DNA of 64,000 nucleotides from Escherichia phage vB_EcoP_PhAPEC7. The notes under the pieces were generated by a model. It searched no databases and had not been told where the DNA came from. It saw nothing but the letters and a program-made list of their open reading frames with translations. Where the stretch lies: sequence record NC_024790.1; one strand, given 5' to 3'. Below, in pieces: positions 33,476 to 36,603 of the stretch (its first letter is position 1; the number at the start of each line of letters is the position of its first letter). A program made the translations under genes and the position numbers.

Positions 33476-33879
33476 TCTGGTAGGTGGCTCAGAAGCTGCT
33501 GCTAGGTGTGGTAGTGTTTATAGTCCTGATGCTATTACTGGTCAGGATTATAGACGTGTCGGCTCCATACATAGCTTTTATCATCACTGTCATTATCCTG
33601 TGGAAATGCAGTGGTAAACACGGTGGTGACAAGCCGCCAGAATAACAACAACCGAACCAGTGGGCTTTAATACTCTCCGAAGTCCATTGGTTCAACCGGG
33701 GTTAATATGAACAAATTTACTATTCACTGGCTCAATGGAAAGGTTAGTTCTTTCATGGGTGGAGAACCTGCTGAAGGAAACAAAGCATTCCACATTGATT
33801 CAGAAGGCTGCAAAATCTTAATACCGTATGTTTGGTATAAAGAGGGTGAAGTTGAAGCATTGAAAAAGAGTAGTTAATA

Positions 33880-35410
33880 TCGTGAAGGGTTCTGTCAGAA
33901 TCCTTTGAGATAGGAACTCCTATCATAACCTTTCTTAACTTAATCTTTGCCGTATGGCACTGACGCTAGGGGTGGCCCCCCATCCGTCAGACAGACTATT
34001 TTAAGAATGGGTTATCTCAGAAAATGTAAAGCAACATTCGGGTTAATCAATGGCCTCTCCCTATAGGGGCCATTTCTGAATCTTAGGCTATATCCCAAAG
34101 GTTAGTATCTTTGGGATAAGGCTTCAGATCCCTTATCAAACTAACTGCTCAATGTTGAGTATATTAATTAACCCAGCCCACTAAGGGGGCGGGAGTTTAA
34201 TGCCGGTAAGCATAAGCCCATCCGACTACAACATCGAAGTGTTAGGTCTTACATGCAATATAGGGTATAAAGGGAGGATTCGTCCCCTCCCTCCTATTAT
34301 GAACTATCGGAGAGTGCATTAGTTGATTAGCTGTGGAAGGTAGGCCGATGTCCACAAGTGTGGCCCAGAGCTAGTGTACTCCCCGATAGTTTTCGTAGCG
34401 ATTATGCGGTTTTTTAGAAACGAACCAATAACATAAATGCAAACGAAGAAGCGTATCTGATGGTCGCCTAACAGCGTAACCTCAGTCAGGAGTGAGTCGT
34501 CCTGATTATCAAACGACCGTGGAGTTCTCCCGTCCATGTATTAGAAACGGGGGACCAACTACCAGTTGCACGAGATGGCTTGATATGTTCAAGTTTGGAC
34601 TAAGTGTGACACCGCTAGATTGGAGGGCTGCTGCGGTAAGCTATAGACTCCAACCGGAGGTTCGAATCCTTCACTGGTAACCAATTCAAAGTAGCACTGG
34701 CTCATATTAGTGGAACTCGAACCCATTGAGCAGACGAGATTAGCTAACTCTCAGTGCTACCCCTAATTGGAAGAATTAAGACGGGTCTGGTGAAGTAGAT
34801 GGGGTTCAATTCCCCCCGGTGGAGTAATCCACTAGCGTGCTTGGTGCACGTATAAGACTTAGTACTGGTGGTTCGATTCCATCCCCCGTTACCTGAAGTC
34901 GCCAGGTACTTATGGCAAACGGGTAGTAACGAACTAGTCATTCGTCAAACGCCCACCCAATTATGAGTCAGCAAGAACGCCTTCACTTAAACTTAAACAA
35001 AAAAGCTTAACGCAATGATTATGTAGGGGTATGTAAGGATTGCGAAGAAGGAGCCAGTTAGAGCCTGGCATGACTCACCTATTATGTCCGCTTAGCTTAG
35101 ACTGGGAAAGCAACCGACTAATAATCGGAAGGTCACTGGTTCAAATCCAGTAGTGGACACCCATTCAGCAGTAACATAGTCCTGATTGCATAGCACTCTA
35201 AAGACAACACTGGTAAGACAGTCCAGTGGCTGCTAATGTATTGTTATTCCCCTCGACGGGAATTTCGCTGGAGAATAGGAACTACTTAAATCCTAGCCTG
35301 AGTATTGCAATATGTGACTATCAATCACGAGAGACGGGACGACCAGACCCCTGAAGCTGGCAATATTGCATATTCATACAAGCCTCCCAGCTATGGGTAA
35401 ATAGTACTAA
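33880..35410 (+). other. Non-coding structured island with tRNA-like elements
   Basis: No RBS-supported ORF; perfect hairpins (for example a 10-bp stem at 34091-34118) and T-arm-like motifs at 34659-34669, 34801-34815, 34870-34880 and 35138-35148. Confidence 0.45.
35086..35159 (+). tRNA. Candidate tRNA (74 nt; anticodon loop CTAATAA, anticodon AAT as parsed)
   Basis: Acceptor GTCCGCT/AGTGGAC (one G-U), D-stem GCTT/AAGC, anticodon stem CCGA/TCGG, T-arm ACTGG-TTCAAAT-CCAGT; CCA not encoded; A34 is unusual. Confidence 0.5.
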
Positions 35411-35446
35411 GTCCCTCAGAGCCGTCACTCTGGGGGACTTTTTTAT
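35411..35446 (+). terminator. Intrinsic terminator
   Basis: GTCCCTCAGAG-loop-CTCTGGGGGAC followed by TTTTTTATTT. Confidence 0.6.
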
Positions 35447-35632
35447 TTGAGCATTAATAATTGGATAATCAATATGATTGATCTAATCTTAACCCCGTAT
35501 GCCTATGAGGTAACGGATAACCGAGGATGTAAGTCTTTGGTATTTGCAGGTAGCGTAGCCTATAACAACGCAGTTATGTTTAAGTACAAACTCAAACCAC
35601 TCTATGAGGCTAATAATGGCAACAGTAAGTAA
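35447..35632 (+). CDS. Hypothetical small protein (61 aa, TTG start)
   Basis: ORF only; weak translation signals. Confidence 0.3.
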   Translation: MSINNWIINMIDLILTPYAYEVTDNRGCKSLVFAGSVAYNNAVMFKYKLKPLYEANNGNSK

Positions 35633-35996
35633 AGAATCAATCGAAGATAAGATTAAGAGCGTCTACTATTTCAATGGTGCTGATGCAGTAAAGTCTGCAT
35701 TCGTTGACCCTTCTGCACTCCCGGCAGACGATCTGGCTAACCTGGGCCTGGTAACCTACTGTATTATCATCCTGGAAAACGGCTTCAAAGTTGAAGGCGT
35801 ATCTGCCTGTGTTGACCCAACCATCTATGATGAGTGGAAAGGCCGTCAGTATGCATATGAAAATGCATTCGATAAGATTTGGGAAATGGAGGGTTACCTC
35901 CTACGTCAGGCATTACATGAGAAAGAGGAGACTGCTAAGGCTCTGGCTTCCTTTGCAGAAAACAACACCTGTGATGGTGGTGGTTGCACCATTTAA
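35616..35996 (+). CDS. Hypothetical protein (126 aa; start trimmed from 35604)
   Basis: ATG with GAGG upstream; C-terminal Cys pair. Confidence 0.45.
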   Translation: MATVSKESIEDKIKSVYYFNGADAVKSAFVDPSALPADDLANLGLVTYCIIILENGFKVEGVSACVDPTIYDEWKGRQYAYENAFDKIWEMEGYLLRQALHEKEETAKALASFAENNTCDGGGCTI

Positions 35997-36114
35997 CAAA
36001 TAAGAGTAAGGTGGTTTTTACCGAAAGGTACTGAACTACCCGACATGTGGTAAGGCTCATGAAGCCAAAACAAAACAAGCCCTCTTAGTGAGGGCTTTAT
36101 CATTTGAGGTAGTT

Positions 36115-36603
36115 ATGTCAGAAGAAATTAAAGTTCACTTCACCAACAACATTGGAACCAAGTGTGTAAATAGATTCCGGATTAACAAGGAAACATATTG
36201 CAAACTACGTGGCTGGGATGTGCCTGCTAATGAAGACCCATTAGAAGTAGGTTACTTAGTAGTATACCCAGATTCTAAACCTAACCATGAGCATTTCCGT
36301 GGTTATATTAGCTGGTTACCAAGGGCTGCATTTGAAGCTGCATATTGTGATGTAGATAAGGGTTGTACTTTTGGTCACGCCGTAGAGCTTCTCAAAGCAG
36401 GCTTCAAACTAGCCCGTAAAGGTTGGAACGGTAAGGGAATGTATATCACCTTAGTAACCGGTGAAAATTGGGCTATAGATAAACATGAGAATACTGTTTG
36501 TGAGAAACGGGATTGGCTGGGTATTAAGACCGTTGATAACCAATTTATGCCATGGGTTCCATCCCAATCGGATGTATTAGCTGAAGACTGGGTATTAGTC
36601 TAG
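36115..36603 (+). CDS. Hypothetical protein (162 aa; start trimmed from 36088)
   Basis: ATG with GAGG upstream; last plus-strand gene before the convergent terminator. Confidence 0.45.
   Translation: MSEEIKVHFTNNIGTKCVNRFRINKETYCKLRGWDVPANEDPLEVGYLVVYPDSKPNHEHFRGYISWLPRAAFEAAYCDVDKGCTFGHAVELLKAGFKLARKGWNGKGMYITLVTGENWAIDKHENTVCEKRDWLGIKTVDNQFMPWVPSQSDVLAEDWVLV

Follow-up and report, generated by a model that had tools for sequence, protein, structure and literature searches.

tmRNAs and Related RNAs

A tmRNA by definition combines a tRNA half and an mRNA half, either within a single molecule or as two pieces joined by base pairing. In bacterial tmRNA (SsrA; RF00023), a pseudoknot stands directly 5′ of the GCA resume codon, which is preceded by U(−5)A(−4). 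Next comes a tag of ten codons, acidic at its start and hydrophobic and rich in Ala at its end; one or two stop codons lie in the H5 loop, and a chain of H-type pseudoknots comes after. These features are shared by the phage module described below, in which the pseudoknot before the resume codon is a putative, PK1-like one. The first codons of the module, GCA AAC GA, are identical to those of E. coli tmRNA, and the strand order of its PK1-like element matches that of the E. coli PK1, where GCGG...CCGC lies shortly before the resume codon (sequence of L181). In contrast to bacterial tmRNA, the module lacks an acceptor stem, a D-loop analogue, a T-arm, CCA and an H2 helix. It carries two downstream pseudoknots versus three in E. 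coli tmRNA, its tags end in MVA, AVA, MAA or VAA instead of LAA, and it is phage-encoded, lies inside tRNA-type arrays and falls below the default thresholds of Rfam and ARAGORN. Scored with a covariance model of the phage module, E. coli ssrA reached only 11.7 bits.

The best Rfam matches of the module are two-piece (permuted) tmRNAs (RF01849, RF01850, RF01851, RF04321), in which the tag RNA is likewise separate from the CCA-bearing piece. However, their coding piece begins with a 5′ acceptor strand and pairs with an acceptor piece encoded just upstream, and the module has neither; the sequence upstream of the copy studied here is a closed stalk (34301–34392), not an acceptor piece, and in T1-like copies a promoter is found there. 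Mycobacteriophages and Bacillus phage G encode tmRNAs that are complete, unlike the module, and none of these phages is enterobacterial. Mycobacteriophage DS6A carries a TLD-only tmRNA remnant, and a similar TLD-only molecule strongly inhibits tmRNA (PMC4131195, PMC11915505). DS6A is thus another case of a phage-borne half tmRNA, but it keeps the opposite half, a tRNA-like domain with no tag.

Phage tRNA gene clusters are also comparable, being one-strand arrays between modules, with a mosaic make-up, neighbouring homing endonucleases and a genuine tRNA-Ile. The locus studied here differs from them in that most members are non-decoding, that the inserts of its stalks vary and that an mRNA-like tmRNA module is among its members.

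Organization of the Island

The analysed window is a stretch of 64,000 nucleotides from Escherichia phage vB_EcoP_PhAPEC7 (NC_024790.1), a Gamaleyavirus (G7C-like, N4-like) genome. A preliminary description of its sequence had singled out a 1.5-kb "non-coding island" (33880–35410), which is 92–95% identical to Gamaleyavirus genomes. The island is a plus-strand array of small-RNA genes, neither junk nor a DNA site. It contains one decoding tRNA-Ile(AAU), a 124-nt tRNA-shaped RNA (t124), long stalk helices and an RNA of about 170 nt at 34389–34556.

The four T-arm motifs reported earlier are where they had been placed (GGTTCGAATCC at 34659–34669, GGGGTTCAATTCCCC at 34801–34815, GGTTCGATTCC at 34870–34880 and GGTTCAAATCC at 35138–35148). 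The motif GGTTCRAWTCC occurs four times in the 64-kb window, always on the plus strand and within the island, over a span of 490 nt; dinucleotide shuffles contained 0.06 copies on average, and none of 100 shuffles reached four. Comparison of folding energies with dinucleotide shuffles, one of the checks proposed in the preliminary description, gave a divided result. Four segments beat their shuffles, namely 33880–34060 (z = −3.3), 34060–34140 (z = −3.9), 34300–34392 (z = −6.1) and the terminator (z = −4.2), whereas the pseudoknotted 34389–34556 (z = −0.7) and the 124-nt element (z = −0.6) folded no better than theirs. The proposed alignment of relatives did reveal covariation, with compensatory changes in the module, the 124-nt RNA and the stalks.

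The array ends with an intrinsic terminator (35409–35440, plus strand) with a 13-bp stem and a T run, detected by a terminator scan and annotated as such in PhAPEC5 and G7C. It is the only terminator of the island, in which no sigma-70-like promoter, own or internal, was found. None of the island's ORFs matched Pfam. One ORF of 40 amino acids (34200–34322), with an SD-like GGGAG upstream, matches PHROG 37481 of unknown function. Among four close relatives, nearly every difference in this ORF alters an amino acid, and in one copy a stop codon cuts the frame short. A protein-coding island was rejected on these grounds.

Structure of the tmRNA-Derived Module

The segment 34389–34556 (plus strand) is well supported as the mRNA-like half of a tmRNA, comprising a putative PK1-like pseudoknot, frame-setting bases, a tag, an H5-like hairpin and two further pseudoknots. 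The preliminary description had allowed for "another structured RNA" in the island, which proved right, although the identity of this RNA as a tmRNA-type tag template had been missed.

The PK1-like pseudoknot (34389–34433) would be formed by GUUUU (34389–34393) pairing with GAAAC (34417–34421) and by UUAU-GC-GG (34402–34409) pairing with CC-A-AUAA (34425–34431), and it holds the family-invariant sequence GUUUUCGU. The invariance of GUUUUCGU leaves the H3-like helix GUUUU/GAAAC with no covariation. In the H4-like helix, GG/CC is conserved and a UA/AU exchange occurs in 17 of 50 sequences, at one pair (25–52); by eye, UUAU/AUAA of the window corresponds to CUUUG/CAAAG in other lineages. The H5-like hairpin (34463–34480; GUCGC...GCG-AC) carries the stop codon in its loop and closes around TAA in every variant. 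This helix is partly misaligned, with one well-scoring pair (88–99) that appears as GC, AU, CG and UA among the 50 sequences.

Pseudoknot 2 (34484–34517) has a main stem of 34484–34491 with 34500–34507 and a second stem of GUCG (34496–34499) with CGAC (34514–34517). Five of seven main-stem pairs change on both sides (the outermost, eighth pair is counted apart), and 87% of the cells are paired; the second stem is invariant. In pseudoknot 3 (34518–34553), the first stem (34518–34523 with 34533–34538) is 100% paired with three to four compensatory pairs, and the second (34527–34532 with 34548–34553) is 89% paired with two. Over the whole module, 87% of the cells are paired, compared with 33–46% in slid controls, and 11 pairs show compensatory changes; the covariation score was reached by none of 500 shuffles. 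In the set of 50 distinct module sequences, 12 of the 24 pairs are compensatory. The downstream 3′ part varies among lineages, with two pseudoknot types, the second of which was recognised only by eye and in an alignment fitted to a model. Where the module is interrupted by a homing-endonuclease gene, a complete substitute pseudoknot is kept.

Resume Codon and Tag

ARAGORN at relaxed thresholds called a resume consensus and a tag in the module, with frame-setting bases UAAAU from 34434, the resume codon GCA at 34439 and the stop codon TAA at 34469–34471 (plus strand). The window copy thus has U at −5 and A at −4. The ten codons GCA AAC GAA GAA GCG TAT CTG ATG GTC GCC encode ANEEAYLMVA. A(−4) is kept in all copies inspected and U(−5) in nearly all, two Ackermannviridae-type copies having C at −5. 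In E. coli tmRNA, only A86 is strictly essential, and U85 tolerates C or G (PMC2481249).

Covariance models had been suggested as a check on the island, and Rfam gave a clear answer for the tRNA (62.4 bits) but left the tmRNA-type matches on the module below threshold: tmRNA_permuted scored 23.1 bits (gathering threshold 47) and beta_tmRNA 16.7 bits on the window tag region. Such sub-threshold matches recur on the tag region of every relative tested, at 24–33 bits.

The relatives contain 26 distinct tag variants, each ten codons long and closed by a stop codon, which is often doubled. All fit the pattern A-N-[DEN]-[DEN]-x-hydrophobic-[LMR]-x-[AV]-A; about half end in Ala-Ala and the remainder in Val-Ala. 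Third positions vary in nine of the ten codons, first positions in six and second positions in five. The pN/pS ratio is 0.54 in the tag frame and 1.81 and 0.98 in the two alternative frames, a signal drawn from only 30 nt, in which the last tag codons double as the H5 stem. The tag therefore appears to be under coding-type constraint, that is, to be read as codons.

Distribution of the Module among Phages

The module was found in 349 of about 50,700 phage records. The carriers belong to at least seven lineages, among them the unrelated N4-like phages, the P22-like HK620, P1, T1-like phages, Ackermannviridae and SE131; their taxonomy was confirmed for Lederbergvirus HK620, Miltonvirus, Moazamivirus, Punavirus P1 and Agtrevirus. 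A covariance model trained on copies of the window type recovered held-out lambdoid, T1-like and Ackermannviridae copies at 75–96 bits. The genomic contexts differ: the HK620 copy lies in a late-operon leader and the P1 copy in the leader of the ban operon. In T1-like copies, TTGACA-17-TAGATT ends 12 nt before GUUUUCGU, and a terminator follows a tRNA; these promoters are predicted to place the RNA start 5–6 nt before PK1. Since phage G7C has no module and the copy of CU10EC is degenerate, the module is dispensable for laboratory growth.

Matches were present in 574 of 5,426 E. coli genomes, mostly on plasmids, so that roughly one tenth of complete E. coli genomes carry the module, via prophages and P1-like plasmids. 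A search of 100,044 species genomes for a bacterial source or an intact ancestor gave three true copies, all prophage or P1-like, and one chance match. Members of the module family carry no annotation or are wrongly labelled as small hypothetical proteins or pseudo-tRNAs, and a full-text literature search found no description of it. Annotation pipelines would gain from recognising the family.

Search for a tRNA-Like Domain

No tRNA-like domain was found with the module: acceptor strands, H2-type strands and an alanine identity element are all missing. ARAGORN with default settings found no tmRNA in the window and no genuine one in 180 related loci, its lone call (L025) being an artefact that uses the 3′ end of a tRNA. 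Around 161 module copies, from 1.5 kb upstream to 1.8 kb downstream, no consistent element with G3:U70, a T-arm and CCA was found; G3:U70 was sporadic, in several cases through chance pairing to the 3′ end of a real tRNA. The elements of the window have C3-G70, A3-U70 and similar acceptor pairs. In the alignment to the Rfam permuted-tmRNA model, 12 nt stand where the model has a 115-nt tRNA-like insert. Since no tRNA-like domain, H2-type strands or alanine identity element were found, ribosome delivery to the resume codon is unsupported.

Several other readings were considered and rejected. A full tmRNA is found neither by default ARAGORN nor at the Rfam gathering threshold, and the 5′ domains proposed by relaxed ARAGORN (34194, 34201 and 34370) are weak and mutually inconsistent. 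An H2-like ring closure between the 3′ strand of the upstream stalk and the 5′ strand of the downstream stalk is, by eye, impossible in Ackermannviridae and T1-like copies. Pseudoknot 3 with ACCA as a TYMV-like aminoacylatable end fails in that ACCA occurs only in some Gamaleyavirus copies and the pairs give no G3:U70. An IRES-like start at GCA driven from PK1 found no support, with a 6-nt spacer between PK1 and the resume codon. Stalk–stalk ring closure is possible in lambdoid copies, whose stalks are repeats.

Possible Mode of Action

The explanation that we favour, with moderate confidence, is that the array includes a headless tmRNA template read through the host trans-translation machinery. 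The array is probably transcribed by read-through from the upstream replication-module genes, and the host enzymes that process tRNA and rRNA (RNase P, RNase III or E, 3′ trimming) probably cut at the tRNA-like elements and stalks, which would free the individual RNAs. Ribosomes would then probably read the tag template with host SmpB and a tRNA-like domain supplied in trans, and stalled proteins would receive the phage-specified tag instead of the host ANDENYALAA.

The single clue in the sequence as to how the module might obtain a tRNA-like domain lies on its 5′ side. The invariant GUUUUCGU is antisense to codons 3–6 of the host tmRNA tag template, and UAGUUUUCGU matches nt 97–106 of E. coli ssrA at ten of ten positions, a match noticed after the fact, with a rough p of 0.002–0.03. 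GUUUUCGU could thus dock the module onto host tmRNA. It also has partners within its own RNA, namely GAAAC in PK1 and, in lambdoid copies, a strand of the upstream stalk. Pairing between the module as a whole and E. coli ssrA was discarded, since the best duplex energy, −97.2, does not surpass that of shuffles (−95.5 ± 6.2) and only the 10-nt match stands out. One specific form of the favoured explanation, which we regard as rather unlikely in itself, is a parasitic tmRNA coding piece that would dock on the host alanyl-tmRNA–SmpB complex via GUUUUCGU, block the host frame and offer the phage resume codon. The ribosome could, however, simply unwind a 10-bp duplex with host tmRNA.

The same antisense match is open to another interpretation, in which the module is not translated but blocks or titrates trans-translation, by pairing through GUUUUCGU or by sequestering SmpB, S1 or RNase R. 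Such an antagonist or decoy is unlikely on balance, although it agrees with the failure to find a tRNA-like domain near the module copies and with the 10/10 match to ssrA, the inhibition of tmRNA by a partial phage tmRNA offers a precedent (PMC4131195, PMC11915505), and the P1 module shares its operon leader with a DicF-like antisense RNA. A decoy needs no reading frame, yet the tag is always ten codons long and ends in [AV]-A with a stop in the H5 loop, and U(−5)A(−4) is kept. The variation of the tag, mainly at third positions and with the lowest pN/pS in its own frame, also speaks against a decoy.

A conserved, horizontally spread and apparently codon-constrained mRNA half without a tRNA half does not fit the accepted tmRNA mechanism. 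Either the tag template is delivered to the stalled ribosome in trans in an unknown way, or a phage mimic of tmRNA disturbs ribosome rescue. Both readings are testable in standard systems, with P1, HK620, T1-like and BASEL-collection phages and with ssrA, smpB and clpX host mutants. If parasitic docking were true, a phage-chosen tag would set the fate of stalled-ribosome proteins during infection, and the module would give the first example of a virus that re-programs trans-translation by RNA and the first natural tmRNA template acting in trans without a tRNA-like domain of its own.

Other RNAs of the Array

The helix TACCAGT (34560–34566)/ACTGGTA (34673–34679) followed by ACCA, noticed earlier as acceptor-like, is indeed present and belongs to t124 (34560–34683, plus strand). 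This RNA has a 7-bp acceptor stem UACCAGU/ACUGGUA, a T-arm GGAGG-UUCGAAU-CCUUC and A73-CCA; its D-side arm is enlarged, and a closed extended hairpin with no 7-nt anticodon loop replaces the anticodon arm. Compensatory changes occur in the acceptor stem (C-G to U-A; CA/UG to UG/CA in L170), in the T stem (A-U to G-C) and in the inner hairpin. It is present in 41 phage records, only of Gamaleyavirus and KP8-like phages, at 90–99% identity (at least 95% in 37 records), is conserved above its flanks and is annotated as an RNA in none. The 121-nt gap between the paired ends at 34560–34680, regarded earlier as wrong for a tRNA, is accounted for by an enlarged tRNA-like RNA that is 95–99% identical in most of these records, and a degenerate tRNA is not what this element represents. 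A tRNA-Ser with a 490-nt intron (34106–34683), called by ARAGORN with -i -ps90, was rejected, as its 3′ half belongs to t124, whose own 5′ strand covaries.

YrlA RNAs consist of a long closing helix and a T-arm-bearing tRNA-like domain. The build of t124 and of the stalk-with-T-arm modules is similar to that of YrlA, a bacterial Y-RNA-like molecule that, like the 3′ tRNA-like structures of plant viruses, is tRNA-like but non-decoding; in contrast to YrlA, the t124 and stalk elements have no Rfam YrlA match and no Ro60 gene context, and the A73-CCA of t124 is encoded, as in a tRNA that can be charged. The GOLLD, ROOL and YrlA covariance models of Rfam gave no island match at E < 10. In relatives, the sole YrlA match (25.6 bits; threshold 69) fell on genuine tRNAs of P1. 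t124 and the stalk modules add further uncharacterised phage RNAs to the tmRNA-derived module.

The proximity of t124 raises the possibility of a two-piece phage tmRNA, in which an array tRNA-like RNA, here t124, would serve the module as the acceptor piece, as in alpha-proteobacterial split tmRNAs with other break points. t124 starts 4 nt after the module end (34556), the downstream sequence of other lineages opens, by eye, with a tRNA-like element or stalk, and t124 resembles a tRNA-like domain in its A73-CCA, T-arm and closed long helix for the anticodon arm, besides being better conserved than its flanks. This arrangement is nevertheless improbable: no partner is common to all lineages, t124 having a far narrower range than the module; the best complementarity between module and t124, 5 bp by eye, is not convincing; and t124 has no G3:U70. 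Known coding pieces, moreover, carry a 5′ acceptor strand, which is absent here because T1-like promoters start the RNA at PK1.

The upstream stalk (34301–34392, plus strand), proposed to be a processing stalk, is an irregular helix of about 30 bp (MFE −39.7 kcal/mol) whose 3′ strand enters the first bases of the module. Among seven distinct relatives, seven of its 33 pairs show compensatory changes; in L004, CGGAGAG/CTCCCCG is replaced by CAATGAG/CTCATTG. The second stalk (34681–34770, plus strand) has the form CCAAUU-CAAA-GUAGCACUG...CAGUGCUAC-CCCU-AAUUGG, and its 5′ end overlaps with the t124 CCA. The pairing of 34691–34699 with 34753–34761 reported earlier is real, with the 3′ side off by one: the complement of GTAGCACTG is CAGTGCTAC at 34752–34760. 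Six of 29 pairs are compensatory in three distinct relatives, and the insert differs among relatives. In lambdoid, T1-like and P1 copies, the ACAGGUAAGAGCAUU...AGUGCUCUUUCC stalks look similar to it by eye.

The canonical tRNA-Ile with the anticodon AAU (35085–35163, plus strand) was identified by ARAGORN as tRNA-Ile(aat) and by RF00005 with E = 3.9e-11, and it is annotated in relatives. Both programs give a tRNA at this place alone, which bears out the earlier statement that the island holds only one canonical cloverleaf. A weak candidate for a further tRNA-like element of 96 nt lies at 34798–34893 (plus strand), with an acceptor stem GAUGGGG/CCCCGUU, a T-arm GUGG-UUCGAUU-CCAU, a 3′ A-CC-U and two T-arm motifs. 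ARAGORN finds it only at -ps80, and RNAalifold on 11 relatives gives 24 pairs, two of them compensatory. In relatives, ARAGORN reports tRNA-???(ac), which the records list as tRNA-OTHER or tRNA-Thr, 6–9 nt upstream of tRNA-Ile. Neither this element nor t124 has an Rfam tRNA match even at E < 10.

The cluster of non-canonical or degenerate tRNAs suggested previously is thus borne out as far as one true tRNA, the conserved t124 and this weaker element are concerned. That the whole array is a graveyard of acquired tRNA and tmRNA genes, with no present function beyond the intact tRNA, is very improbable. The island content is mosaic and variable among close relatives, the element annotated in relatives as tRNA-Cys or tRNA-Pseudo-ACA is absent from the window and others were scored as pseudo-tRNAs, the module is missing from G7C and several segments fold no better than shuffles, all of which would suit decay. 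However, the structure of the module, with its compensatory changes, and its reading frame are kept across unrelated phage families, t124 is highly conserved and has compensatory changes of its own, and a substitute pseudoknot was retained where the homing-endonuclease gene invaded the module.

Upstream of the stalk, three hairpins noticed earlier were confirmed by reading the sequence. TGACG (33961–33965) and CGTCA (33985–33989) enclose GGGG/CCCC in a plus-strand hairpin (33961–33989) that RNAalifold keeps in eight distinct relatives, with one compensatory pair. A perfect 10-bp stem, TATCCCAAAG (34091–34100) with CTTTGGGATA (34109–34118), forms the 10–12 bp perfect core of a long plus-strand hairpin (34085–34124), kept in 14 distinct relatives with no compensatory change. 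The third is GGGAGG (34272–34277)/CCTCCC (34286–34291). Promoters of the N4-type virion RNA polymerase are DNA hairpins, and these perfect palindromes (34091–34118 and 33961–33989), lying between the replication and virion modules, would be compatible with a replication origin, packaging site or hairpin promoter cluster, but such a DNA-level element, the replication or packaging site of the preliminary description, is scarcely credible for the island as a whole (though conceivable for 33880–34300 alone), since all motifs are on one strand, helices with G-U pairs covary as RNA, the array includes a genuine tRNA and is closed by an intrinsic terminator, and homologous modules occur in contexts as unrelated as the HK620 and P1 operon leaders.

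Between tRNA-Ile and the terminator lies a further structured region (35164–35408, plus strand; z = −0.4), with three compensatory pairs in three relatives. Near the terminator of one relative (L015, 2788–2871), a sub-threshold match to STnc100 of Rfam was observed.

Genome setting and content of the island

The island (33880–35410) belongs to a Gamaleyavirus genome (G7C-like, N4-like, Schitoviridae), and window 33700–35500 is 92–95% identical to the corresponding regions of Escherichia phages Mimir124 and PhAPEC5. It is flanked by homologues of N4 gp45–gp47 on the 5′ side and, on the 3′ side, by gp48, gp49 and then the virion RNA polymerase (3,456 aa). In one of the relatives, Mimir124 (L006 2680–3376), the gp48 and gp49 homologues (ORFs 35604–35996 and 36088–36603) have the automatically assigned label “anti-CRISPR”. 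The annotation of the island itself is discordant among relatives, ranging from tRNA-Ile, -Cys, -Thr, -Ala, -Val, tRNA-OTHER and tRNA-Pseudo to strings of tiny hypothetical proteins.

The content of the island is mosaic even among near relatives. The genus type phage G7C (L011, HQ259105) lacks the segment corresponding to window 34304–34763, which comprises the upstream stalk (a long helix), a tmRNA-like module and a 124-nt tRNA-shaped RNA (t124), and CU10EC retains only a remnant of it; the module is therefore accessory. In G7C, an HNH homing endonuclease gene, gp47.1, is located just 5′ of the island.

The motifs and hairpins listed in the preliminary description were all found in the sequence at the positions reported, except for one 3′ helix arm shifted by one base. 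The 64-kb window contains the T-arm consensus GGTTCRAWTCC four times, always on the plus strand and within a span of 490 nt; the shuffle mean was 0.06, and four occurrences were never reached. Several segments are much more stably folded than their dinucleotide shuffles (z = −3.3, −3.9, −6.1 and −4.2), and the only canonical cloverleaf, as had been seen by eye, is a tRNA-Ile(AAU) at 35085–35163 (62 bits).

Pfam matched none of the ORFs of the island. One 40-aa ORF (34200–34322), preceded by an SD-like GGGAG, matches PHROG 37481 of unknown function; it shares sequence with the GGGAGG hairpin and with the beginning of the upstream stalk. Its differences among near relatives are mostly amino-acid-changing, one relative carries a premature stop, and the ORF is probably not a gene.

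Discovery and distribution of the module

A permissive Rfam scan gave weak matches of tmRNA models at 34370–34518, and ARAGORN with relaxed thresholds found a tmRNA resume consensus with the tag ANEEAYLMVA* at 34439–34471. Gamaleyavirus relatives have ANDDVVLMAA or ANDDVILMAA at the same site, each with a double stop. The module (34389–34556) corresponds to the mRNA-like half of a tmRNA.

BLAST with 200 nt around the tag matched 349 phage records and 574 of the 5,426 complete genomes of E. coli, predominantly in plasmids; another 160 or so loci came from pattern scans of IMG/VR. Among the T1-like carriers are swi2, C1 and Bas77. The inspected copies belong to unrelated lineages: the P22-like phage HK620 (between pR′/qut and the late terminator), 2050H1 and Ag3 (Ackermannviridae), SE131 (Moazamivirus), the Klebsiella siphophage ZX4, and P1. 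In P1 (L022), the module (1391–1554) occupies the leader of the C1-controlled ban operon, directly after the DicF-like region and its terminator-like hairpin, with tRNA-Asn and tRNA-Thr downstream. None of these inspected copies is annotated at the module, including that of P1, whose very detailed annotation holds 534 features. The family occurs almost exclusively on mobile elements; just 3 true copies were counted among 100,044 species-representative genomes.

Of the phage tmRNAs found named in the literature, complete ones occur in mycobacteriophages and Bacillus phage G, and a remnant consisting of the tRNA-like domain only in DS6A (PMC4131195). The 2025 tmRNA database, which admits complete genes only, lists 79 phage sequences (PMC11915505). 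Our full-text literature search, mostly outside subscription journals, found no description of a tag module lacking the tRNA-like domain in enterobacterial phages.

Architecture of the module

No tRNA-like domain was found for the module. ARAGORN with default settings detected no genuine tmRNA in 180 loci, the sole call borrowing the 3′ end of a real tRNA, and Rfam tmRNA scores in the window and its relatives (23–33 bits) are under the threshold of 47. When the module is aligned to the permuted Rfam tmRNA model, the tRNA-like insert collapses to 12 nt, and no element combining G3:U70 with a T-arm and CCA was consistently associated with the module among the 161 copies scanned. Copies in T1-like phages have a near-consensus promoter (TTGACA-17-TAGATT) whose end lies 12 nt upstream of GUUUUCGU, the invariant 5′ motif of the module, and a terminator located about 570 nt further on, behind a tRNA. 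This promoter position suggests that the RNA starts at the first pseudoknot.

This putative PK1-like pseudoknot is opened by GUUUUCGU; its second helix would pair YUWUG-C-GG with CC-A-CAWAR, with the strands ordered as in E. coli PK1 (GCGG...CCGC) and likewise just before the resume codon. The bases UAAAU and the resume codon GCA follow, with U at −5 and A at −4 as counterparts of U85 and A86, the frame-setting bases of E. coli tmRNA (PMC2481249). The stop codon is in the loop of a hairpin whose only well-aligned pair shows all four Watson–Crick combinations across the family, and two H-type pseudoknots are situated 3′ of this hairpin.

In an alignment of 24 sequences, 87% of cells are paired, against 33–46% with partners slid; 11 pairs changed on both sides, and the covariation score was reached by no shuffle. 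Among 50 distinct sequences, 12 of 24 pairs are compensatory in an alignment fitted to the covariance model and thus biased toward it. With this model the window reaches 198 bits, and lambdoid, T1-like and Ag3 copies outside its training set reach 75–96 bits, whereas E. coli ssrA receives only 11.7 bits, exactly at its tag region.

Three lambdoid prophage contigs from IMG/VR (L028, L035 and L038) carry an ORF within the second downstream pseudoknot whose translation resembles, by eye, an HNH/AP2-type homing endonuclease. The sequence ...GTGATTAATAA is duplicated on either side, with a complete substitute pseudoknot upstream. Such an insertion would fit a homing endonuclease targeting a conserved phage sequence and leaving the RNA intact.

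Probable tag reading and possible mode of action

In all inspected copies, a 10-codon tag is located immediately 3′ of AUAAAU. All 26 distinct tag sequences comprise 10 codons and a stop and fit the pattern A-N-[DEN]-[DEN]-x-hydrophobic-[LMR]-x-[AV]-A. Nine of the ten codons vary at the third position, six at the first and five at the second, and pN/pS, 0.54 for the tag frame, rises to 1.81 and 0.98 for the two alternative frames. That every template feature is conserved speaks for a tag read by ribosomes. Reading would proceed via trans-translation, since the template has neither a start codon nor a Shine–Dalgarno sequence.

The sole sequence clue to the mechanism is UAGUUUUCGU, which is perfectly antisense to nt 97–106 of E. 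coli tmRNA (host tag codons 3–6); it suggests that the module docks on host tmRNA. Other lineages appear by eye to keep 9–10 bp of complementarity through different flanking bases. The match was noticed post hoc, with a rough p of 0.002–0.03, and the motif also has pairing partners inside the same RNA. Covariation of GUUUUCGU with host tag codons, for example as GUUGUCGU in Pseudomonas phages, where the host has ACGACAAC, would strongly favour docking; an unchanged GUUUUCGU would point to a role within the module RNA itself. The same complementarity could belong to a decoy or antisense antagonist of host tmRNA, a reading that we consider unlikely beside the conserved tag frame.

The module and t124 might instead form a two-piece system. 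The latter (34560–34683, plus strand) begins 4 nt past the module. It combines an acceptor stem of 7 bp, a T-arm and A73-CCA with an enlarged arm on the D side, and an extended closed hairpin takes the place of the anticodon arm. The acceptor stem, the T stem and the inner hairpin all show compensatory changes. This RNA is better conserved than its flanks: of 41 records from Gamaleyavirus and KP8-like phages, 37 show at least 95% identity and the other four 90–95%. Next to the scan of 161 copies for a tRNA-like partner, such a system is improbable. That the island consists of relics is very unlikely beside the pN/pS values, and so, beside the covarying pairs, is its action as a DNA-level site.

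Stalks, proposed processing and other elements of the array

The stalks, both on the plus strand, contain seven (34301–34392) and six (34681–34770) compensatory pairs. Related stalks, some 20 bp long and interrupted by a single U-U mismatch (ACAGGUAAGAGCAUU...AGUGCUCUUUCC), were recognized by eye in the module flanks of lambdoid, T1-like and P1 copies; their inserts often contain a T-arm. No sigma-70-like promoter of the array's own was found; the array has one strong terminator (35409–35440). Long near-perfect helices are typical substrates of RNase III, and RNase P acts at tRNA-like ends. As the stalks suit the former and the tRNA-like ends the latter, the array would be cut into separate RNAs.

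The tRNA-Ile at 35085–35163, with its unusual anticodon AAU, is homologous to a T1-like phage tRNA(CAU) (within L025 3400–3574), and the two share the anticodon stem and loop context (CU-AAU-AA in the window versus CU-CAU-AA). A hairpin containing AUGUAGGGGUAUGUA precedes both (window 35000–35075), which suggests that the tRNA and its upstream element move jointly between phage families. A 72-nt tRNA-like element, called tRNA-Ala(cgc) by ARAGORN and having a poor D-arm, is inserted 5′ of the module in some Gamaleyaviruses, namely ECBP1 (L015 1396–1467) and loci L012, L014 and L016. The window lacks this element, which looks like an isolated acceptor and T-arm domain, but with U3-A70. Rfam found no match to STnc100, a Salmonella sRNA family, in the window; sub-threshold matches (24–34 bits, threshold 47) were obtained downstream within the same arrays for ECBP1 (L015 2788–2871), P1 (L022 2680–2799) and Ag3 (L023 2199–2308).
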